From an uncultured bacterium (GTDB lineage Bacteria > Chlamydiota > Chlamydiia > Chlamydiales > SM23-39): a stretch of DNA of 64,000 bases. Both the position numbers and the translations under genes were made by a program. Positions 3,842 through 43,098 of the stretch are shown here, in pieces. The notes beneath the pieces were generated by a model, which saw only the letters and a list, made by a program, of their open reading frames with translations, was not told where the DNA came from and did no database searches. Position 1 is the first letter of the stretch. Each line of letters begins with the position of its first letter. The stretch is taken from contig CAYXMS010000003.1 in assembly GCA_964466185.1 (NCBI GenBank), positions 2,937 through 66,936 of the forward strand. The letters run 5' to 3'.

Positions 3842-4777
3842 TTAAAAATTACAGAAACTGCCTTGATAAGTTTTTCTTTTAGTGAATTCCTGCAGTATAC
3901 ATTGTAAAAATTTTTCTTTATTATCTTTCATCCATAAGGGATGAACAATATCCAGAGGATGGCCATTTCTGGAAGAAACCCTATGTATAATAGTTTTTGG
4001 GGAAAGCCTTTGTACAAAATCGCAAACTAATGTTACTGATTCCGCAAAAGACGGGCTCTTCCACAGACCTTTTAGAAAAATTTTTTCTAGAGCTGTATTT
4101 TTTAAGGCAGCTAAAAGATGTATTTTAACACCTTCTATCTCAAGCTCTGCTAATTTGTCAGCTGTAGCTAACATTTCTTGTTTTGATTCCCCAGGTAAAT
4201 TTAAAATGATATGGGCACAGTGGTGTAAATTATATTTTTTAGTCAGTTCTATAGCTTTTAAAAAATCTGTTAAGCATTCCTGCCGGTTAATGAATTTTAA
4301 AGTTTTATCATGGATAGTCTGCAGACCATATTCAATGCAGACATAATCTACTTTTTGCTTGTAGGAAGCTATGAGTTTTATTTTCTCTTCATCTATACAG
4401 TCAGAGCGGGTAGCAATGGAAATGCCGACAATATCAGGATGAGCTGAAAGAGCTTCGTCATAGCGTTTTTTTAAAGTTTCTAAAGAGGCGTGCGTATTGG
4501 TAAAGGATTGGAAATAGACGATGAATTTTTTAGCTTTATATCTGCTTTTTCTGATTTTGATATTGTTTCTTACCTGTTCTTTGATTGGAGTCAAAAGTTT
4601 GTTGGTACGGGAAGAGGCGCCTTTAGATTCACAAAAAATACAGCCCGCCAAGCTTTTGCTGCCATCTCGATTGGGACAGCTAAAACCACCATCTATAGAA
4701 ACTTTATAGACCTTTGTTTTAAATAGCTTTTGCATATAATCATTATAGCTAAAATAAGGCAGGGATTGCTTTTTCAT
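3842..4777 (-). CDS. Radical SAM protein, TIGR01212 (YhcC-like) family
   Basis: 311 aa. The N-terminal segment VSIDGGFSCPNRDGSKSLAGCIFCES and the overall layout are typical of this family. Confidence 0.85.
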   Translation of the reverse strand: MKKQSLPYFSYNDYMQKLFKTKVYKVSIDGGFSCPNRDGSKSLAGCIFCESKGASSRTNKLLTPIKEQVRNNIKIRKSRYKAKKFIVYFQSFTNTHASLETLKKRYDEALSAHPDIVGISIATRSDCIDEEKIKLIASYKQKVDYVCIEYGLQTIHDKTLKFINRQECLTDFLKAIELTKKYNLHHCAHIILNLPGESKQEMLATADKLAELEIEGVKIHLLAALKNTALEKIFLKGLWKSPSFAESVTLVCDFVQRLSPKTIIHRVSSRNGHPLDIVHPLWMKDNKEKFLQCILQEFTKRKTYQGSFCNF

Positions 4778-4816: not shown

Positions 4817-5755
4817 ATGCCTTCATTTGTCCGCAAACTGTTTTGTCTGCGTTATTTTACTTTAATTGGCTCTGTCGGCTTATTTGTAGCTCTAGTATAC
4901 CTTAAATATCCGCTTTTTCTAGATAAAATTCATGAAGAGTTCGGTTATTTTCATGCCCATGTAAATAAAAAAGAGCTTAATACTGCCAACTATAAATTTT
5001 CTTATGTAGAACGAGGAGACGGACAGGCTATTTTGTTTGTCCATGGTTTTCGCAGCGATAAGAATAATTGGCTTGGATATATACGTAAATTAGGAGGGGG
5101 ATATAAATATGTAGCTCTAGATTTGCCGTACCATGGAAGTACTGTTGTCAAACGAAAGGTCGAGTTTAACATTAAAAATATGACAGCTGCTTTAGATGAA
5201 TTTATAAAGGCTAAAAAATTAAATAACTTTTATATGGTAAGTACTTCTTTGGGAGCAGGCTTTGCTTTAGAATATGCCCGTCATAATCCGGATAAAGTAT
5301 TGAAAATTGTTTTAATCAATCCTTTTGCTTTAAAACCTTCTAGCAAGGAAAAATTGCGCGCTGTGGTAGAAAAAAATAAAAAAGTGTTTTCTCCTGATAC
5401 GTTGGAACAGCTGGATTATTTGTTTGTTTCTATGAAAGGCTTTCCTTTGCAGGTGCCTTCAAATATCAAGAATTATATTTTGGAAAAGATCAGAGCGACT
5501 AATGCACAGGGTAAAAAAATGTTAGAAGAAGTATCTTGCAGCGAAGGACTGGAAAAATATCTTCCCCGAATTAGAATACCAGTTTTAATTTTGCAAGGCA
5601 GTAAAGATCAGGTGATTAATTTCAAAGATAAACACGTTTATAAAAAATTGCTGCCTAATTTAAAATATGTAGAAATCAAAGGCGGCCATCATATTTTTTA
5701 TAAAAAAAGTTTAAGAAAAGCTGTTTTGGAGATTAAAAAGTTTTTAGCAGATTAA
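4817..5755 (+). CDS. Alpha/beta-fold hydrolase with N-terminal membrane anchor
   Basis: 312 aa. It has an HG oxyanion motif (FVHGFRSD), the nucleophile elbow VSTSLGAGFA, a C-terminal GGHH and an N-terminal hydrophobic segment. Confidence 0.8.
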   Translation: MPSFVRKLFCLRYFTLIGSVGLFVALVYLKYPLFLDKIHEEFGYFHAHVNKKELNTANYKFSYVERGDGQAILFVHGFRSDKNNWLGYIRKLGGGYKYVALDLPYHGSTVVKRKVEFNIKNMTAALDEFIKAKKLNNFYMVSTSLGAGFALEYARHNPDKVLKIVLINPFALKPSSKEKLRAVVEKNKKVFSPDTLEQLDYLFVSMKGFPLQVPSNIKNYILEKIRATNAQGKKMLEEVSCSEGLEKYLPRIRIPVLILQGSKDQVINFKDKHVYKKLLPNLKYVEIKGGHHIFYKKSLRKAVLEIKKFLAD

Positions 5756-5764
5756 AGTTTAAAA

Positions 5765-6040
5765 TTAAGGACGCTTTTTGACTTTGGCTTGTTCTTTTTT
5801 AGTGCTGGATATAATTTGCTTGAAAATTGCTTTTAAATAATCAGAAGGAAATTTTTCTAAAATTTCTTTTTCCCTTTTTCTGTCGGTAATGTGTTTTTTA
5901 TAAGCCAAGGCTTGTAAGGCTAAAAATAGCCGTTTGTTTAAAAGAGAAATTAGCTCTTTATTAACGCCATCTATTTTTTGGCGGATTTGATCAAGCTTTT
6001 CAGCCGTATCTTGAGCTTTGTTTTTGCTTTTAGTTTTCAT
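5765..6040 (-). CDS. Small AroQ-type (type II) chorismate mutase-like protein
   Basis: 91 aa. LDQIRQKIDGVNKELISLLNKRLFLALQALAYKK...TDRKREKEILEKF aligns by eye with the E. coli CM domain, including the Arg11, Arg28, Lys39 and Asp48/Glu52 equivalents. Confidence 0.6.
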   Translation of the reverse strand: MKTKSKNKAQDTAEKLDQIRQKIDGVNKELISLLNKRLFLALQALAYKKHITDRKREKEILEKFPSDYLKAIFKQIISSTKKEQAKVKKRP

Positions 6041-6078
6041 GTTGTTTTGTTCCTTTTCGGTTGTTTTTTTTCGACTAA

Positions 6079-7323
6079 TTAAGAGCTTTGAGTAGTTTTT
6101 TCTATTAAATAAAGCTGATCATTGCGGCGTACTTTTTTTCCTACTAATATAGCAGCCTTTTCGCCTTTTTGAGCAGACAGAACCGGTCCGTTAGTATGCA
6201 AAGATAGAACTTTCATTTTGAGTAAGCCTGTAGTCGGTCCTGTAATATAGACTTCCTGGCCGATTTTTAAAGAACCGGCTTCCAATAAAAACTCGGCCAC
6301 TTTTAAATTGGAAAAATATTTAACCGCTTTTCCCAGGTATGTTTTTTTTTGCGAAGCTTTAGAACCTGAAACATTAGACCACTGCTTTGTTTCTTGGCCT
6401 AAATAATAACCGCCTTCCCAAAAACCGCGGTTGTAGACTTTTTCTAAATCGGACTTGAGCTTTTTGATTTTTTCTAGACTATATTTATTTCTCAGCAGGC
6501 AGATTAAAGCTTCTTTATAGGTTTTAGTGACTTGCCAGACATAATCAGCAGAACGGGCCCTGCCTTCAATTTTTAAAATTGAAACTCCGCTTTTCACTAT
6601 TTTGTCCAACAGACCAATCGTGCATAGATCTTTAGGAGACATGACATATTTATTATCTATGACCAGTTCCTTTTGAGTATTTTCATCGATAATTTTATAT
6701 TTTCTGCGGCATGGCTGCAGACATTGGCCCCGATTGGCTGATTTGTTGTAAAGAGCCAAACTCATATAACATCTGCCGGAAATCGCTATGCATAAAGCGC
6801 CATGTATAAAAATTTCTATTTTTACTAAATTGCCGCTGGGTCCTTTGATTTTTTCTTTTTCAATACCCTGGATTATGTCGGTAATTTGCTGCAGGGTCAG
6901 TTCTCTGGCTAAAACAATAGTATCAGCATACCCGGCAAAAAACCTAACCGCTTCTAAATTACCAACATTGGCCTGTGTAGAGACATGGGCGCTGATTTTG
7001 ATTTTTTTTAGATACTCTAAAACTGCCATGTCGCTGGCAATAATAGCATCAACCCCGCAGCTCTTAGCAGCATCAGCTGATTTTTTGAATAAAGCTATAT
7101 CTCGATCATAAATTAAACTGTTTAAAGTCAGATAGCTTTTGATGTTATGCTTTTTGCAAAGCGCTATGCATTTAGGTAGGTTTTCCAGGTTAAAATTATG
7201 ACCTGCCAAAGTACGCATATTTAACTCGTCCAAGCCGAAATAAATGCTGTCTGCTCCGGCATCAATAGCAGCTTTTAAAGCAGCAAAAGATCCAGCCGGA
7301 GAAAGAAGCTCAGGAATTTTCAT
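6079..7323 (-). CDS. Peptidase U32 family protein (YrrO/TrhP-like size class)
   Basis: 414 aa. N-terminal ELLSPAGSFAALKAAIDAGADSIYFG and the Cys motif HGALCIAISGRCYMS...SANRGQCLQPCRRKY are both typical of U32. Confidence 0.9.
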   Translation of the reverse strand: MKIPELLSPAGSFAALKAAIDAGADSIYFGLDELNMRTLAGHNFNLENLPKCIALCKKHNIKSYLTLNSLIYDRDIALFKKSADAAKSCGVDAIIASDMAVLEYLKKIKISAHVSTQANVGNLEAVRFFAGYADTIVLARELTLQQITDIIQGIEKEKIKGPSGNLVKIEIFIHGALCIAISGRCYMSLALYNKSANRGQCLQPCRRKYKIIDENTQKELVIDNKYVMSPKDLCTIGLLDKIVKSGVSILKIEGRARSADYVWQVTKTYKEALICLLRNKYSLEKIKKLKSDLEKVYNRGFWEGGYYLGQETKQWSNVSGSKASQKKTYLGKAVKYFSNLKVAEFLLEAGSLKIGQEVYITGPTTGLLKMKVLSLHTNGPVLSAQKGEKAAILVGKKVRRNDQLYLIEKTTQSS

Positions 7324-7489
7324 AAAAACCTTTTTGGTTTTAGAAATTTTTAAATTAAAAGTAAAAAAATTATACTAAAATCAATGATTTTAACTAAGGT
7401 TTAAAATTAAATTAATAATTTTAATATAGAGAACATAGAAATATATGCTGCCAAATTCTACGTTTGCCAGATAGGATTATTCGAAAAAA

Positions 7490-8179
7490 TTATCTGATTT
7501 GACAGCTTAATATTTTATTTTCCAATTTTTTCTTTAAATCTAAAAATTCATTGTCGGAAAAAGTTTTAAAATCTTTTAACTCCGAGTTTAAAGGATTTTC
7601 ATTTATGTATTTTTGCAGGGAATATAAAGGCGCGTTTGGTATTAAATCCGCCATTTTTTCTACATCTTTTATAGTATGCAGACCTTTGACTAAAGTAGAG
7701 CGGAATTCTTTTTTTATTTTAGAATCTAAAATCAAAAAAATGCTTTTTAGAATTTTTTTAGTATCTACTTTAACTCCAGTTATTTTGGCATAATTTTTTA
7801 AAGGGGATTTTAAATCCATAGCAATATAGTCGATAAGGTTTTGCTGAATTATTTTTTTGAGCATTGCCGGATTAGTGCCGCAAGTGTCCAGTTTGATTAA
7901 AAAATCCAGTTTTCTGATTTTTTCTAAAAACTCAGGCAGGTCTTTTTGCCAAGTCGGCTCTCCTCCGGTTATAACAACTGCATCTAATTTGCCTTGGCGT
8001 TTTTTTAAAAAAGCTAAAATCTTTTCTTCGTCAATTAAAGGTCCGTAAGCCGATGGTATAACCAAGCTTTGATTGTGGCAAAACTGACACCTGAAAGGAC
8101 AGCCGCGAGTAAAAATCACGGCTGCCAATTTATCAGGATAGTCTATTAAGGAAAATTTTTGCCAGCCCCCGATTAGCAT
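7490..8179 (-). CDS. nrdG: Anaerobic ribonucleotide reductase activating protein (radical SAM)
   Basis: 229 aa with the CPFRCQFCHN cluster motif and GGEPT. It overlaps the nrdD stop by 7 nt. Confidence 0.9.
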   Translation of the reverse strand: MLIGGWQKFSLIDYPDKLAAVIFTRGCPFRCQFCHNQSLVIPSAYGPLIDEEKILAFLKKRQGKLDAVVITGGEPTWQKDLPEFLEKIRKLDFLIKLDTCGTNPAMLKKIIQQNLIDYIAMDLKSPLKNYAKITGVKVDTKKILKSIFLILDSKIKKEFRSTLVKGLHTIKDVEKMADLIPNAPLYSLQKYINENPLNSELKDFKTFSDNEFLDLKKKLENKILSCQIR

Positions 8180-10308
8180 ACCGCAGCCTTTTTATTTTCA
8201 AACTCCATTTGATAATTTTTTCTTATATTAAATTCAGCCTGTTTTCCAGCGTTCCATTGTTGTACGGGGCGTAGATAACCAGTGACTCTGGAATAAATCT
8301 CACAGTCTTTGGCACAGGTAGGGCAGATTGGATGCTCTCCTGATATATAACCATGTTCTGGACAAATGCTAAAAGTAGGCGTGATGGAAATATAAGGCAG
8401 GGAATAGCCGCTGAAAACTTTTTTGATTAGGTTTTTTACATTTTGTCCGCTATGGATTTTCTCTCCAATATAACTATGCAGAACAGTGCCGCCTGTATAT
8501 TTGGTTTGTAAAGCATCCTGGTGTTCTAAAGCTTCAAATAGATCATCAGTATAATTAACCGGCAGAAGCGAAGAGTTGGTATAAAAAGGTTGCCCTCCTT
8601 GTGAATAGCTTTCTTCATTTGCCGAAATAATATCCGGATGTTTTTTCTTGTCTAAAAGCGCTAGCCTAAAGGCAGTGCCTTCAGCTGGCGTAGCTTCTAA
8701 ATTGTAATTGTTGCTGGTTTCTTCTTGGAATTTGGTTAGCCTGTCTCGCATAAAGTCTAAAACTTCTAAAGAAAAAGCTTTTCCATTAGATGAAGCTATA
8801 TTTTCTTTTAAAAGATTTAAACAGGCTTCGTTCATGCCTAAGATGCCGATAGTAGAAAAATGGTTTTTCCAATAGCAGTTAAACCGCTGTTTAATATCCC
8901 TTAAATAAAACTTGGAGTAAGGATACAGCCCAGCTTCCGTCAGTCTTTCTATGACTTTTCTTTTAACTTCCAAACTATGTTTGGCCAGATCCATAAGCTC
9001 GGCTAATTGGTCAAAAAACTCTTTTTTGTTTTTGGCTAAATAACCAAGCCTTGGCAAATTAATAGTTACCACGCCAATAGAGCCGGTTAAAGGATTTGCT
9101 CCAAAAAGCCCCCCTCCCTTGTGCGCTAGCGATCGGGTGTCCAACCGCAGCCTGCAGCACATGGATCTGGCATCTTCAGGACTAAGTTCTGAATTAATAA
9201 AATTGGCAAAATAGGGGATCCCGTATTTGCCTGTTACGCCCCAGAGAAGATCGTGTTTAGGATTGTCCCAGTCAAAATCTTTGGTAATATTATAAGTAGG
9301 AATCGGAAAGGTGAAAACGCGGCCTTTGGCATCGCCTTCAATCAGGACCTCTAAAAAGGCGCGATTAAACAAATCTAGTTCTTTTTGAAATTCTTTATAG
9401 GTTTCTTTTTGGTTTTTGCCGCCGATGACTACAGGTACGTCGGCTAAAATAGAAGAAGGCGTTAAATCTAAGGTAATATTGGTAAAAGGAGTTTGAAAGC
9501 CAACCCTGGTCGGTACATTGATATTAAAAATAAATTCTTGCATGGCCTGTTTAATCTGCTGATAATTTAAATTGTCATAACGGATAAAAGGAGCCAAAAG
9601 AGTGTCAAAAGAGGAAAAAGCTTGGGCTCCTGCAGCTTCGCCTTGCAAAGTATAAAAAAAATTAACCGCTTGACCCAGCGCTGTTCTGAAATGTTTGGGA
9701 GGCTTGCTTTGCACTTTTCCAGCGACCCCTGTAAAACCGGAAACTAAAAGATCTTTTAAGTCCCAGCCAACACAATAAGAGGATAAAACTCCCAGATCAT
9801 GCAAATGTATGTCCCCTTCCTGATGAGCTTTTTTGATTTTGGAATTGTAGATCTTATTTAGCCAATAAATTTTATCAGTTTCCGATGAGATATAATTTTG
9901 CAAACCCTGTAAAGAATAGGACATGTTGGAGTTTTCTTTGACTTGCCAATCCAATTTGTCCAAATATTGGTCTATCAAGACTACTCCTGCTTGATTGGCT
10001 ATTTCTCTTAAATGAGCATGATGGTCGCGATATATAATGTAGGCTTTGGCAGTTTTTTTAAATGCAGAAGACAGTAAAACCTCTTCTACAATATTTTGTA
10101 TTTCTTCAACGGTTGGAATTTCTTCTGTTGCCGTTTGTTCCAATAATTGAATCACTTTTAATGTTAAAGTTCTGGCAGCCTTTTCGTTAATCTCTTCAGT
10201 TTCTTTGCCCGCATTGATAAGGGCTTTGGTGATTTTTTGGGGATTAAAAGCCACTGTTTGCCCCGTTCTTTTTTTGATTTTTTCAATTTTACAGTTAGAT
10301 TTTTTCAT
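8173..10308 (-). CDS. nrdD: Anaerobic ribonucleoside-triphosphate reductase (class III)
   Basis: 711 aa. It has an N-terminal ATP-cone (KIKKRTGQTVAFNPQKITKAL). The C-terminal Zn site CPEHG...CPICPTC is followed by the glycyl-radical motif SRVTGYLRPV. Confidence 0.95.
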   Translation of the reverse strand: MKKSNCKIEKIKKRTGQTVAFNPQKITKALINAGKETEEINEKAARTLTLKVIQLLEQTATEEIPTVEEIQNIVEEVLLSSAFKKTAKAYIIYRDHHAHLREIANQAGVVLIDQYLDKLDWQVKENSNMSYSLQGLQNYISSETDKIYWLNKIYNSKIKKAHQEGDIHLHDLGVLSSYCVGWDLKDLLVSGFTGVAGKVQSKPPKHFRTALGQAVNFFYTLQGEAAGAQAFSSFDTLLAPFIRYDNLNYQQIKQAMQEFIFNINVPTRVGFQTPFTNITLDLTPSSILADVPVVIGGKNQKETYKEFQKELDLFNRAFLEVLIEGDAKGRVFTFPIPTYNITKDFDWDNPKHDLLWGVTGKYGIPYFANFINSELSPEDARSMCCRLRLDTRSLAHKGGGLFGANPLTGSIGVVTINLPRLGYLAKNKKEFFDQLAELMDLAKHSLEVKRKVIERLTEAGLYPYSKFYLRDIKQRFNCYWKNHFSTIGILGMNEACLNLLKENIASSNGKAFSLEVLDFMRDRLTKFQEETSNNYNLEATPAEGTAFRLALLDKKKHPDIISANEESYSQGGQPFYTNSSLLPVNYTDDLFEALEHQDALQTKYTGGTVLHSYIGEKIHSGQNVKNLIKKVFSGYSLPYISITPTFSICPEHGYISGEHPICPTCAKDCEIYSRVTGYLRPVQQWNAGKQAEFNIRKNYQMEFENKKAAVC

Positions 10309-10363
10309 GGCTTTTGCTCCTCTTTTTAAAGATACTATTAATAGATTGCTCTAGTAACATTAG

Positions 10364-10379
10364 ATACTATATATGGTAT
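10364..10379. promoter_or_regulatory. NrdR-box-like palindrome, proximal
   Basis: atactatatatggtat compared with the remembered NrdR-box consensus acaCwAtATaTwGtgt. It lies 56 nt upstream of the nrdD start. Confidence 0.6.
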
Positions 10380-10396
10380 CCATGCTACTTTCTTTA

Positions 10397-40875: not shown

Positions 40876-41550
40876 ATGAATGAGTTGATTTTTGGCAGTC
40901 ATTTATTGGTAAATCTGGTTTTTTTACTAGGCGCTTTAAGATTTGGTAAAAAAACACTTATGATTTTTTTTGTTTTAGAATCTTTATTAGCGAATATTTT
41001 CGTACTCAAACAAATTTCTTTGTTTGGTCTGAGCTTGACGGCTTCTGATGTTTATGTCGTGGGAGCTATTTTAGCTTTAAACCTGTTGCAAGAATATTTT
41101 GGTAAAAAGGAAGCAAAAAAAGCGGTTTTTTTAGCTTTTTTTGCTATGACTTTATTTACAGTGATGTCGCAGCTGCATTTGTATTATCTGCCAAGTCCGG
41201 CAGATTTTGCAGCTTCAGCTTATAGCACGATTTTAAAACTTATGCCCAGGCTAGCTGTTTTTTCCGTGCTGGTTTTTTTAATAGTTCAGAAAGTAGATCT
41301 GGAAGTTTTTGCTTTTTTGAAAAAAAAATGTGCCAAAAGTTTCTTTTTGCGTTTGGGAGGAGCTAGCATTGTCTCCCAATCTATAGATACTGTTTTGTTT
41401 AGTTTATTGGCTTTATATGGGCAGCTAGAAAAGATTTCTCACGTCATATTATTTGCTCTTGTTATTAAATATTTTTCGATTCTGACCTCGTCTTTAATAA
41501 TTGCGTTTTTAAAACCAATTAAACCTTTGCAAGGTCAGTATGAAATTTGA
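40876..41550 (+). CDS. yhhQ: Queuosine-precursor/queuine transporter, YhhQ (DUF165) family
   Basis: 224 aa, 6 TM. It has YhhQ-like segments (ASDVYVVGAILALNLLQEYFGKKEAKKAV, SQSIDTVLFSLLALYG) and overlaps the tgt start by 11 nt. Confidence 0.7.
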   Translation: MNELIFGSHLLVNLVFLLGALRFGKKTLMIFFVLESLLANIFVLKQISLFGLSLTASDVYVVGAILALNLLQEYFGKKEAKKAVFLAFFAMTLFTVMSQLHLYYLPSPADFAASAYSTILKLMPRLAVFSVLVFLIVQKVDLEVFAFLKKKCAKSFFLRLGGASIVSQSIDTVLFSLLALYGQLEKISHVILFALVIKYFSILTSSLIIAFLKPIKPLQGQYEI

Positions 41551-42661
41551 AATTTTGCACCAGTCTCAAAAATCTAAAGCCCGCATTGGCAGAATCCATA
41601 CTCCTCATGGAATTATTGATACTCCTAATTTTGTAGCTGTTGGAACTAATGGTACAATTAAAGCTTTAGACAGCGAAATGGTGAAAAAGATCGGCCTTCA
41701 GCTGATGTTTTGCAATACCTACCATTTGCTGCTGCAGCCAGGAGCGGAAGTAGTAGCAAGCGCCGGCGGTTTGCATAAGTTTATGCAAAGAAAACAGCCG
41801 ATTATCACCGATTCAGGAGGATTCCAGGTATTTTCCTTGGCCTACGGCTCTGTAGCGGAAGAGCTCAAAAGTAAAGGTCAGAAAAAATTGGATCGCTTAG
41901 TTTTAAAAATATCAGAAGACGGTGTTTTATTTCGCTCTTATCGAGATGGAAGCAAAATTTTACTGTCTCCTGAAAGTTCTATTGCAGCCCAAAAAAAGTT
42001 GGGCGCCGACATTATTATTCCCTTCGATGAATTGCCCCCATATCATTTGGACTATCGGAAATTGGAAGAATCTTTAGAGAGAACCCATCGCTGGGAAAAA
42101 AGATCTTTAGAAGCCCATTTAAAAAATGTTAAAAATCAGGCTATGTATGCTGTAATTCATGGAGGCATTAATAAAGATTTGAGAAAAAAAAGCTGTAATT
42201 ATTTAGAAAAACTGCCTTTTGATGGTTTTGCTATAGGAGGTTCTGTTGGTAAAAATAAAGACGAAATGGTGGAAATGCTTTCTTTTACATTGCCTTTTTT
42301 ACCGAAGAACAAACCTAATCATCTTTTGGGGATTGGAGATTTGGAGTCTTTGACCAGATCAATTCCTTTGGGTATTGATACTTTTGATAGTTCTTACCCG
42401 ACACGCGCAGCGCGACATGGCATGATTTTAACGAAAAGAAAAATATTAAAAATTTCTAGAACGGCATACGCGTTAGATTTCAGACCTTTGGAACAAGACT
42501 GCTCCTGCTATGTCTGTCAAAATTATTCCAGGGCTTATTTGAATCATTTATTTAAGGCCTCTGAACTGACGGCTTATATGCTGGCTACGGTCCATAACCT
42601 GCATTTCATGGTCAGATTAATGGCGGACTTTCGAGAAAAAATTGCCGATGATCTAATCTGA
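41540..42661 (+). CDS. tgt: tRNA-guanine transglycosylase
   Basis: 373 aa with TPNFVAVGT, FCNTYHL, TDSGGFQV, GFAIGG and the Zn site CSCYVCQNYSRAYLNHL. Confidence 0.95.
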   Translation: MKFEILHQSQKSKARIGRIHTPHGIIDTPNFVAVGTNGTIKALDSEMVKKIGLQLMFCNTYHLLLQPGAEVVASAGGLHKFMQRKQPIITDSGGFQVFSLAYGSVAEELKSKGQKKLDRLVLKISEDGVLFRSYRDGSKILLSPESSIAAQKKLGADIIIPFDELPPYHLDYRKLEESLERTHRWEKRSLEAHLKNVKNQAMYAVIHGGINKDLRKKSCNYLEKLPFDGFAIGGSVGKNKDEMVEMLSFTLPFLPKNKPNHLLGIGDLESLTRSIPLGIDTFDSSYPTRAARHGMILTKRKILKISRTAYALDFRPLEQDCSCYVCQNYSRAYLNHLFKASELTAYMLATVHNLHFMVRLMADFREKIADDLI

Positions 42662-42740: not shown

Positions 42741-42785
42741 TAGTCAATCACCCCTCCCTAAAGGGAGAGGCTTGAGCCGTGAGGA
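42741..42785 (-). repeat. Dispersed hairpin element copy
   Basis: The minus strand reads caagcctctccctttagggaggggtgattgacta (ASPFREG*), with the hairpin cctccct/aaa/gggagagg. Confidence 0.55.
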
Positions 42786-43098
42786 ACAAGGGAAACTGGT
42801 TGATTAGGGAGCACAAAGGAAACTTTATGCAGCAGTTGGTTAGAAGAGATTACATACACACCTTGGAATGTTTTAGCCGGTGGCTGTTCGCAAGTTCCAA
42901 GCTCTGTGGTTGGCGGTTAAATGTCGTGAGGGGTAAAGGCTGTGCTGCCAGCTTAAAAATGCTTTCCAACAATCTCGATGCGACTTTAACCGCAGAGGGA
43001 GGCGGGACAGAACTTTATGCTTTTGCATATCTTTATTGTTTCTGCCCTAATTTTTTAACAATTAACGGAGGGGCAGCATTTCTTCCAACATTGAAAGA
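42748..43098 (-). pseudogene. GC-rich non-coding relic, very tentatively the decayed 3' end of an IS200/IS605-type tnpB-like gene
   Basis: A single minus frame of 117 codons has 3 internal stops. It reads SFNVGRNAAPPLIVKKLG...FNRQPQSLE...TAQASPFREG* and runs straight into the hairpin element. Line 42901-42960 is 30/60 G+C. Confidence 0.25.

Follow-up and report, generated by a model that had tools for sequence, protein, structure and literature searches.

What does a stand-alone chorismate mutase (CM) do next to a U32-family protein in the genome of an uncultured chlamydia? The two genes lie on a 64,000-nucleotide stretch of contig CAYXMS010000003.1 (assembly GCA_964466185.1; Chlamydiota), which was analysed over its full length and is referred to as the window. 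A sequence-only reading had placed a 91-aa AroQ-like CM 38 nt downstream of a 414-aa U32 protein, on the same strand and after nrdD-nrdG, and had interpreted the CM as a supplier of prephenate to U32. These coordinates were exactly reproduced: the U32 gene occupies positions 6079–7323 and the CM gene positions 5765–6040, both on the minus strand, and the 38-nt spacer between them (6041–6078, minus strand) contains a Shine-Dalgarno-like AAAGGA motif and no minus-strand terminator-like site in a terminator scan. Prephenate is required genetically for the U32 enzymes RlhA, TrhP, and UbiU/V, and donates an oxygen atom to ubiquinone (PMC5727448, PMC6599085, PMC10990095). The concept of a prephenate-dependent U32 hydroxylase is already known; what is new is that a dedicated CM, together with a ferredoxin in part of the family, is encoded with the enzyme in an uncharacterised, apparently PrtC-type subfamily across Bacteria and Archaea. 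The best explanation of the pair, and one that we consider reasonably probable, is a prephenate-supplying CM coupled to an O2-independent Fe-S hydroxylase.

The 91-aa protein is probably active as a CM, because it keeps the full catalytic set, is predicted to adopt the AroQ fold, and passes the Pfam cut-off. It scored 46.1 bits against CM_2 (PF01817; gathering score 27, E = 5.6e-12), and ten of ten other U32-adjacent CM open reading frames (ORFs) submitted to Pfam were also above this cut-off (36.6–71.4 bits). In an alignment with the E. coli PheA and TyrA CM domains (from NC_000913.3), residues R20, R37, K48, D53, R56, E57, T80, and Q84 corresponded to the eight positions that we take to form the active site of the E. 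coli CM domain (EcCM), namely R11', R28, K39, D48, R51, E52, S84, and Q88. The only substitution was S84 to T80, with identical residues at all other positions, in agreement with the catalytic pattern that had been read from the sequence. The AlphaFold2 (AF2) model, built from database-match sequences, had a predicted local distance difference test score (pLDDT) of 92 and consisted of three helices (residues 2–45, 54–62, and 67–88) with shortened H1–H2 and H2–H3 loops. Its top fold matches (5j6f, 5go2, 1ybz, and 3rmi) were all AroQ CMs, and the best sequence match in the Protein Data Bank (PDB) was 1ybz, the CM of Pyrococcus furiosus (E = 2e-5), in which both inter-helix loops are short as well. 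All NCBIfam CM equivalog cut-offs were missed (e.g., TIGR01805, NF004925, and TIGR01791; best 40.6 versus 71.2 bits), and by these scores the protein is a divergent member outside every curated NCBIfam equivalog. A 9-residue deletion between H2 and H3 is common to the Chlamydiota CMs and two archaeal CMs (loci L012 and L082 in our numbering), which is compatible with movement of the U32–CM pair as a unit between archaea and chlamydiae.

The U32 protein matched PF01136 with 224.5 bits (E = 1.4e-66, Pfam) and carries the CX6CX15CX3C motif that was defined for U32 oxidases (PMC11574389). The four [4Fe-4S]-binding cysteines (C178, C185, C201, and C205; 6709–6792, minus strand) were invariant in a 20-sequence U32 alignment, and the Fe-S motif noted earlier is thus intact. 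The AF2 model had a pLDDT of 82, dropped to low confidence only near the cluster-binding loops, and comprised two domains. The TIM barrel matched Mk0906 (5d88) in a fold search, and the C-terminal beta-barrel (~residues 325–410; 6094–6351, minus strand), which resembles EF-Tu domain 2, matched the C-terminal domain of a Geobacillus U32 protein (4he5/4he6; template modelling score 0.81–0.87, root-mean-square deviation 1.1–1.2 Å, Foldseek) as well as EF-Tu chains. A weak Pfam match to GTP_EFTU_D2 covered residues 342–396, and a PDB sequence search with U32 gave nothing at E <1e-3. No N-terminal signal peptide was seen by eye in either the U32 or the CM sequence.

The characterised U32 members named in the sequence-only reading (RlhA, TrhP/YrrN-YrrO, and UbiU/UbiV) turned out not to include the window protein. 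It scored far below the NCBIfam cut-offs for UbiU (NF047963; 181 versus 440) and UbiV (NF047965; 46.6 versus 275), its TrhP match (NF011996; 184 versus 534) covered the N-terminal half only, and Pfam gave no match to DUF3656, the RlhA signature; TrhP, UbiU/V, and RlhA identities were ruled out on these grounds. BLASTP identities to E. coli RlhA, UbiU, and TrhP were 34, 32, and 29%, respectively. No second U32 ORF was present in the window, its duplicate contig (L001), or the first 80 related loci. The window U32 instead shares ~50% full-length identity with ~415-aa proteins of Prevotella, Bacteroidales, Akkermansia, and others. In the supplementary table of Sakai et al. (2019), from which our subfamily labels were taken and where the PepU32#4 representatives include B. 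fragilis Q5L7D5 and A. muciniphila B2URM8, Akkermansia muciniphila, Bacteroides spp., and Alloprevotella have only RlhA-type proteins and one PepU32#4 protein. Because the ~50% relatives are the only single-domain, non-RlhA U32 proteins of the Akkermansia and Prevotella loci, we infer that the window U32 belongs to PepU32#4, the subfamily in which Kimura et al. placed Porphyromonas gingivalis PrtC, the founding U32 ‘collagenase’. The sequence-only reading had regarded clustering with collagenase-type proteases as a reason to reject a hydroxylase, and formally the protein does cluster in this way. We did not count this as a refutation and consider that test mis-specified, because the four-cysteine Fe-S motif is invariant in the subfamily, a signal peptide is not visible, and the neighbours are of a redox type and not of a protease type: the conserved genes around it encode a ferredoxin, CM, SufE, a YhbP-like flavoprotein, and NrdDG.

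The adjacency of CM and U32 is far beyond chance. We surveyed 161 U32 loci (2.1 Mb, ~2,200 crude genes), which were fetched with the alignment of the window U32 and 19 relatives (80 loci from species-representative genomes and 80 from metagenomes) and in which ORFs were called crudely (longest ORF, greedy). All 14 CM_2 ORFs in these loci were immediate neighbours of U32, and none was found elsewhere in the flanks. At a generous rate of 0.5% per locus, the probability of at least 5 such events would be ~1e-3 and that of at least 14 would be ~1e-13. The conservation of the adjacency in relatives, which had been set beforehand as a test of the pairing, was observed in Chlamydiota (7 of 8 assessable loci; locus L004 ends at a contig edge), archaea, and Bacteroidota, in at least five gene orders. 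In Chlamydiota, the order nrdD-nrdG-U32-CM followed by a convergent hydrolase gene and MnmL was found in the window, L002, L003, L085, and L175 (Anoxychlamydiales), and L026 had U32-CM with the same hydrolase and MnmL genes. L177 kept the pair with changed flanks (thymidine kinase-U32-CM-S26 peptidase). Archaeal metagenome-assembled genomes (MAGs) had U32-CM-ferredoxin (L010, L012, L082, and L087, together with L163 and L170, which were found from the CM side), adjoined by PCNA in L082 and L163. The Bacteroidota order was CM-U32-ferredoxin preceded by tryptophan 2,3-dioxygenase (TDO) and in part followed by a 6-pyruvoyl-tetrahydropterin synthase (PTPS) gene (L041, L056, and L058). In a further Bacteroidota locus (L091:5134–5943, minus strand), a 269-aa protein, in which an unannotated N-terminal region of ~180 aa is fused to a CM_2 domain at the C-terminus (59.7 bits), was encoded divergently from U32-ferredoxin. 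Candidate CM-U32 fusions were rejected, with over-long U32 ORFs reflecting only over-extended start codons. In a tree of U32 built by the unweighted pair group method with arithmetic mean (UPGMA) on identity distances, from which counts of independent events are approximate, CM was present in 5 of 5 assessable loci of the Chlamydiota clade, 5 of 24 of the archaeal/Patescibacteria clade, 4 of 48 of the ferredoxin-linked Bacteroidota clade, and 0 of 71 of the Bacteroidales/Prevotella clade.

The archaeal locus L040 (3442–14061) shows the pair in a complete biosynthetic context. Its genes encode, in order, 3-deoxy-D-arabino-heptulosonate 7-phosphate (DAHP) synthase, 3-dehydroquinate (DHQ) synthase, 5-enolpyruvylshikimate 3-phosphate (EPSP) synthase, a fusion of shikimate kinase (SK), DHQ dehydratase (DHQase), and shikimate dehydrogenase (SDH), chorismate synthase, CM, U32, an aminotransferase, prephenate dehydrogenase (PDH), and prephenate dehydratase (PDT). 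U32 therein sits exactly at the prephenate node, between CM and the prephenate-consuming enzymes. When the other 160 loci were searched with the L040 proteins for aro, PDT, and PDH genes, L051 gave an SDH-like ORF, L078 an aminotransferase, and the remainder nothing; no pheA, tyrA, PDT, PDH, or shikimate gene was found within the 64-kb window.

The CMs themselves also point to a U32-associated lineage. The CM search used an iterated profile seeded with the window CM; a single-sequence CM search had returned only two proteins. A profile of the U32-linked mini-CMs retrieved 39 proteins from 5.8 billion, and the contexts of eight were read. The two best matches (E = 5e-22 and 3e-18, the latter on 24 contigs) were U32-CM-ferredoxin operons, two at ~1e-13 were stand-alone CMs (one in a Gracilibacteria MAG), and four between 1e-11 and 2e-9 lay in ordinary shikimate/PDT operons. 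Because the best matches with readable context (E <1e-17) were all U32-linked, these similarities indicate that a discrete U32-associated CM clade exists, with ordinary aro-operon CMs more distant from it. The stand-alone mini-CMs (L164:4001–4243 from the Gracilibacteria MAG and L168:4001–4264) came from apparently genome-reduced bacteria and had no aro gene or U32 within 4 kb; one was beside an anti-sigma-factor kinase and a STAS protein, and the other between cysteinyl-tRNA synthetase (CysRS)-like and LOG-like genes.

A further conserved partner of U32 was a small ferredoxin. A single-cluster 4Fe-4S ferredoxin of 73–86 aa (Fer4_15/Fer4_13; CxxCxxC...CP) was encoded directly 3' of U32 on the same strand in 57 of the 161 loci, including L008, L010–L012, L014, L015, L020, L022, and L025. 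The gaps were mostly −4 to +10 nt, often with a 1–4-nt overlap (e.g., ferredoxin L012:11443–11664). The published U32 mechanism requires an unknown oxidant (PMC10990095), and the 75-aa ferredoxin is a candidate electron acceptor of U32 hydroxylases because it fits this role. In nine Bacteroidota loci (L021, L025 (11448–11897), L029, L032, L060, L072, L081, L132, and L154), U32-ferredoxin was followed by a protein with the pyridoxamine 5'-phosphate oxidase (PNPOx) fold, which shared 32% full-length identity with E. coli YhbP (E = 8e-27). E. coli yhbP (NC_000913.3, 3299472–3299915) lies three genes from ubiT-ubiU-ubiV, and proteins of this family may generally work together with U32 enzymes. The order U32-SufE-nrdD-nrdG was found in Prevotellaceae (L034, L045, L070, L110, L126, and L138); this arrangement is a second, independent link of the U32 family to anaerobic ribonucleotide reductase, together with an Fe-S assembly factor. 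The same-strand anaerobic cluster suggested for the window thereby gained support, with nrdDG linked to U32 in two arrangements and two phyla.

Other neighbours of U32 were more restricted. Five Bacteroidota clusters (L041:5627–12655, L054, L056, L058, and L077) combined U32-ferredoxin with 3-hydroxyanthranilate dioxygenase (3-HAO), a flavin adenine dinucleotide (FAD) monooxygenase resembling kynurenine 3-monooxygenase (KMO), and TDO, and they also held a fatty-acid-desaturase-family protein and a PTPS/QueD-like protein. A 405-aa radical S-adenosylmethionine (SAM) ORF was located directly upstream of U32 with an 11-nt overlap (L087:4752–5969), a related 360-aa radical SAM/BATS (BioB/ThiH-like) ORF was three genes upstream (L082:1504–2586), and a different radical SAM gene was divergent from U32 in L082 and L163. 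A separate family of ~352-aa ORFs also occurred upstream of U32 (L012, with a 4-nt overlap and no Pfam match; L014, three genes upstream). A tRNA-dihydrouridine synthase gene (Dus; 244.7 bits) was found a few genes from U32, often divergent, in L014 (11739–12680), L118, L128, L135, L144, L153, and L157–L159, and CysRS-like and RibF genes also recurred near U32; the recurrence of these three may be lineage-specific synteny only.

Taken as a pathway, the 91-aa AroQ protein, presumably a homodimer, would convert chorismate to prephenate, and the 414-aa cytoplasmic [4Fe-4S] U32 protein would hydroxylate its substrate without O2 by taking the oxygen atom from prephenate, which would be released as phenylpyruvate and CO2. 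The Fe-S cluster would carry off two substrate electrons. Their acceptor in most relatives would be the dedicated 75-aa single-cluster ferredoxin encoded directly downstream, and in the chlamydial lineage the acceptor would be encoded away from the locus. A dedicated CM would be needed where phenylalanine and tyrosine synthesis has been lost, and for this reason the linkage would be concentrated in host-dependent lineages. The position behind nrdD-nrdG would fit expression under anoxia. The interpretation of the CM as a source of co-substrate is in this way supported by the recurrent gene linkage and, by analogy, the published genetics of other U32 subfamilies.

The substrate is a matter for a guess: we favour an RNA pyrimidine, most likely uridine 34 of tRNA, which would become 5-hydroxyuridine (ho5U34) and replace the O2-dependent TrhO route. 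RNA, and tRNA U34 specifically, is favoured because many members of the family come from organisms whose own metabolism is minimal (Woese- and Nanoarchaeota and Patescibacteria), because the C-terminal barrel, with its resemblance to EF-Tu domain 2, is of the TrhP/YrrO type, and because Bacteroides, Parabacteroides, and P. gingivalis have TrmR and lack TrhO, TrhP, TrhP1, and TrhP2. The only non-RlhA U32 in these three is PepU32#4, and the same TrmR-type phyletic argument was applied to PepU32#1 and #2 by Sakai et al. An anoxic chlamydia would need a substitute for TrhO, because Chlamydia trachomatis has only this O2-dependent enzyme. The conserved MnmL gene 1 kb away gives weak, lineage-bound support to a tRNA substrate. 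No trmR, cmoA/B, or trhO gene was found within the 64-kb window.

Several observations weigh against a prephenate-fed hydroxylase at this locus. CM is present in only 14 of the 161 U32 loci (9%), the chlamydial loci are related by descent and may represent one or two events instead of seven, and a chlamydial relative (Waddliaceae, L176) has U32 without CM. The Bacteroidota U32-linked CMs lack R51 and E52 in the alignment with the E. coli CM domains. Chorismate has no evident source at the locus, given that aro genes are missing from the window, and the archaeal carriers may lack a shikimate pathway, in which case their CM would have no substrate. The chlamydial loci are also without a ferredoxin, and the ferredoxin profile found no match in the window, so that the electrons would need an acceptor from elsewhere. 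The PepU32#4 placement is indirect, through the Akkermansia and Prevotella relatives instead of PrtC itself, and the TrmR argument is built on homology calls made by others. PrtC was reported as a collagenase, hydroxylation has been demonstrated for no PepU32#4 enzyme, and recent papers still treat PrtC as a collagenase, including as a virulence marker in microbiome studies (PMC12768972).

The strongest competitor retains the CM-U32 coupling and replaces RNA with a small aromatic metabolite, such as a quinone or quinone precursor or an intermediate of the kynurenine pathway. UbiU/V demonstrate that U32 enzymes can hydroxylate lipid-soluble aromatics, U32 lies beside TDO, the KMO-like monooxygenase, and 3-HAO in the five ferredoxin-linked Bacteroidota loci described above, a polyprenyl-synthase-like gene (assigned by sequence look only) is upstream of U32 in 10 Bacteroidales loci, and the homologue of YhbP, which is encoded near ubiTUV in E. 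coli, follows U32-ferredoxin in nine Bacteroidota loci. Given these kynurenine-pathway and polyprenyl-synthase-like neighbours and the YhbP-ubiUV link, a small-molecule substrate is a serious alternative, albeit an unlikely one. The U32 family is common in Woese- and Nanoarchaeota and Patescibacteria, groups in which quinones and most biosynthetic pathways are generally missing. TDO and 3-HAO moreover need O2 themselves, such that an anaerobic bypass of KMO alone would make little sense; the neighbours vary from clade to clade; and no UbiT-like lipid-carrier gene was seen beside these U32 genes, although no systematic search was made. A different relationship between the two proteins would be that the AroQ-fold protein mainly binds prephenate or chorismate and serves U32 as an adaptor or a regulatory subunit, much as CM-like domains do in DAHP synthases. 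Regulatory CM domains are indeed its best structural matches (the Geobacillus DAH7PS-CM 5j6f, crystallised with prephenate, and that of the B. subtilis DAHP synthase, 5go2), the stop and start codons of the two genes overlap in several loci, which suggests that the proteins are made in matched amounts, and the loss of R51/E52 in Bacteroidota would suit a non-catalytic role. The window CM, however, keeps the eight catalytic positions, and the CM beside U32 in L040 is evidently the working CM of its operon; we regard an adaptor as improbable.

The remaining two explanations deny a functional pair of this kind altogether. If a housekeeping CM for phenylalanine and tyrosine merely happened to lie beside an unrelated U32, one would expect CM to be missing from most loci, as it is in 147 of 161, chlamydial synteny could come by descent, and the CM in L040 clearly serves the aro operon. 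Such a coincidence is nevertheless very improbable: the pairing recurs in two domains of life, in varied orders and orientations and with changed flanks (L177); aro, PDT, and PDH genes are absent from all CM-carrying loci except L040; every CM match in 2.1 Mb adjoins U32, with the chance values given above; and the nearest CM relatives are U32-linked. Alternatively, U32 could be a real collagenase-type protease acting as a virulence factor, with the CM secreted as an effector to disturb the chorismate metabolism of the host. Collagenolytic activity was reported for PrtC and HP0169, chlamydiae secrete many effectors, and secreted CMs exist in other pathogens. On reading, however, neither sequence begins with a signal peptide; a cytoplasmic redox enzyme is indicated by the invariant Fe-S motif, the operon with ferredoxin, and the SufE and nrdDG neighbours; and the same pair is found in archaea and in environmental and gut Bacteroidota, which makes this explanation hardly credible. 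The catalytic mechanism of the U32 ‘peptidases’ was never defined (Kimura et al.).

Returning to the prephenate-supplied hydroxylase, a wider proposal can be made, which we hold only tentatively and at slightly less than even weight. CM, the PrtC-type U32, and ferredoxin would form a self-contained and horizontally mobile O2-independent hydroxylase module shared by archaea, where U32 is widespread in DPANN-labelled MAGs, and anaerobic Chlamydiota. The whole PrtC subfamily would then consist of prephenate-dependent hydroxylases and would probably be the missing ho5U34 enzyme of Bacteroidales and anoxic chlamydiae, and genome-reduced symbionts would have kept CM only as a source of the oxygen donor.

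Upstream of U32, nrdD (8173–10308, minus strand) encodes a class III (anaerobic) ribonucleoside-triphosphate reductase with an ATP-cone (NF006126, 1068 versus 548 bits; PF13597, PF03477), and nrdG (7490–8179, minus strand) its radical SAM activase (TIGR02495, 215.9 bits versus a cut-off of 131). The two genes overlap by 7 nt, and both scores are above the equivalog cut-offs, as expected of a class III ribonucleotide reductase operon. An AT-rich intergenic region of 166 nt (7324–7489, minus strand) separates nrdG from U32; the corresponding spacers of four chlamydial loci had no conserved motif when aligned, promoter and terminator scans of 5500–10800 were not above the shuffled-sequence background, and Rfam gave no match in the U32-CM locus. 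On the other side, a convergent alpha/beta-hydrolase gene lies 9 nt from the end of the CM gene, and beyond it is the MnmL/YtqA tRNA-modification radical SAM gene (3842–4777, minus strand; TIGR01212, 313.7 versus 180 bits).

The closest U32 relatives were from Parachlamydiales and Anoxychlamydiales MAGs. The gene content of the window likewise fits a chlamydial origin, with a duplicated UvrA of 1,941 aa (18820–24645, minus strand), a Pkn-type Ser/Thr kinase of 960 aa (15233–18115, minus strand), and a YhhQ-like (Vut_1) transporter adjoining Tgt (40876–42661, plus strand) as typical chlamydial features, in addition to an ankyrin protein. The window also encodes two MiaB/RimO-type methylthiotransferases and a TilS-like PP-loop protein. 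A HEARO RNA (RF02033), which we take to be the IscB-associated omega RNA, was found at 42743–42990 (plus strand) with 105 bits against a gathering score of 83 (Rfam). It is followed by no IscB-sized ORF; the next features are a 119-aa ORF overlapping the RNA, with no Pfam match, and a malate/lactate dehydrogenase gene. Within a chlamydial genome, it resembles a remnant or an element standing on its own.

In full-text literature searches, no paper that was available in whole or in part described a gene linkage between CM and U32, the combination of U32 and ferredoxin returned no papers, and the literature on anaerobic chlamydiae contained no mention of NrdD, shikimate, or U32. Three key papers mention CM solely as the domain of PheA employed for genetic work in E. 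coli (PMC5727448, PMC6599085, PMC10990095). The use of prephenate as an organic oxygen donor has so far been supported by genetic experiments in E. coli and by isotope labelling; in vitro reconstitution has been achieved for no U32 enzyme, most of the twelve U32 subfamilies have no assigned function, and the electron acceptor of U32 enzymes is unknown (PMC10990095, PMC11574389). A dedicated CM and a U32 at the prephenate node of an aro operon provide independent, cross-domain support for prephenate use by U32 enzymes. The 75-aa ferredoxin, and possibly YhbP, can be nominated as concrete electron partners, the compact three-gene archaeal operons offer material for an in vitro assay, and the ‘collagenase’ label of the PrtC subfamily is challenged. 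A new reason is also predicted for keeping chorismate metabolism in host-dependent anaerobes: if the explanation is true, a genome with chorismate synthase but without PDT or PDH would be expected.

Compared with known systems, the window CM resembles minimal AroQ CMs such as the E. coli EcCM domain, the P. furiosus protein (1ybz), and that of Helicobacter pylori (6al9), which likewise have a three-helix fold, the catalytic residues, and ~90 aa; the short H2–H3 connection is the same in 1ybz. The mini-CMs known to date occur as fusions with enzymes of aromatic amino-acid metabolism or share a gene cluster with them, whereas the window CM and its nearest relatives are encoded with U32, often together with a ferredoxin. 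E. coli obtains prephenate from PheA and TyrA encoded elsewhere in the genome, while the window CM gene is next to U32. Among U32 enzymes, TrhP (E. coli YegQ) and TrhP1/TrhP2 (B. subtilis YrrO/YrrN), which carry out prephenate-dependent tRNA U34 hydroxylation, have the U32 TIM barrel and the four-cysteine motif in common with the window protein, for which the same prephenate-requiring, O2-independent type of chemistry is proposed. They belong to the YegQ type and to subfamilies #5/#3, respectively, and the window U32 probably to PepU32#4. TrhP shares 29% identity with the window U32, differs from it by an insertion of ~45 residues after the Cys motif, and has been reported only in bacteria, whereas the window family is also archaeal. 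YrrO and TrhP have a common characteristic C-terminal motif (Sakai et al.), and the window U32 has a C-terminal beta-barrel of the Geobacillus type (4he5/4he6).

RlhA (E. coli YdcP), the 5-hydroxycytidine (ho5C2501) synthase of 23S rRNA, is the E. coli paralogue with the highest identity (34% over 303 aa, E = 5e-48) and is prephenate- and Fe-S-dependent, but has 653 aa with DUF3656, compared with 414 aa without DUF3656 in the window. UbiU-UbiV(-UbiT) are likewise U32 Fe-S proteins (32% identity between UbiU and the window U32), a YhbP homologue is found near both systems, and 18O labelling identified prephenate as the oxygen source in their anaerobic ubiquinone hydroxylation (PMC10990095). UbiU/V is a heterodimer of two U32 paralogues with the lipid-binding UbiT, whereas the window has a single U32 with a beta-barrel and no quinone context. 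P. gingivalis PrtC, probably of the same subfamily, has a similar length (~410–420 aa) and the Cys motif; annotations and citations describe it as a virulence protease that is secreted, while the context of the window family, with CM, ferredoxin, SufE, a YhbP-like protein, nrdDG, and an aro operon, points to a cytoplasmic Fe-S oxidase.

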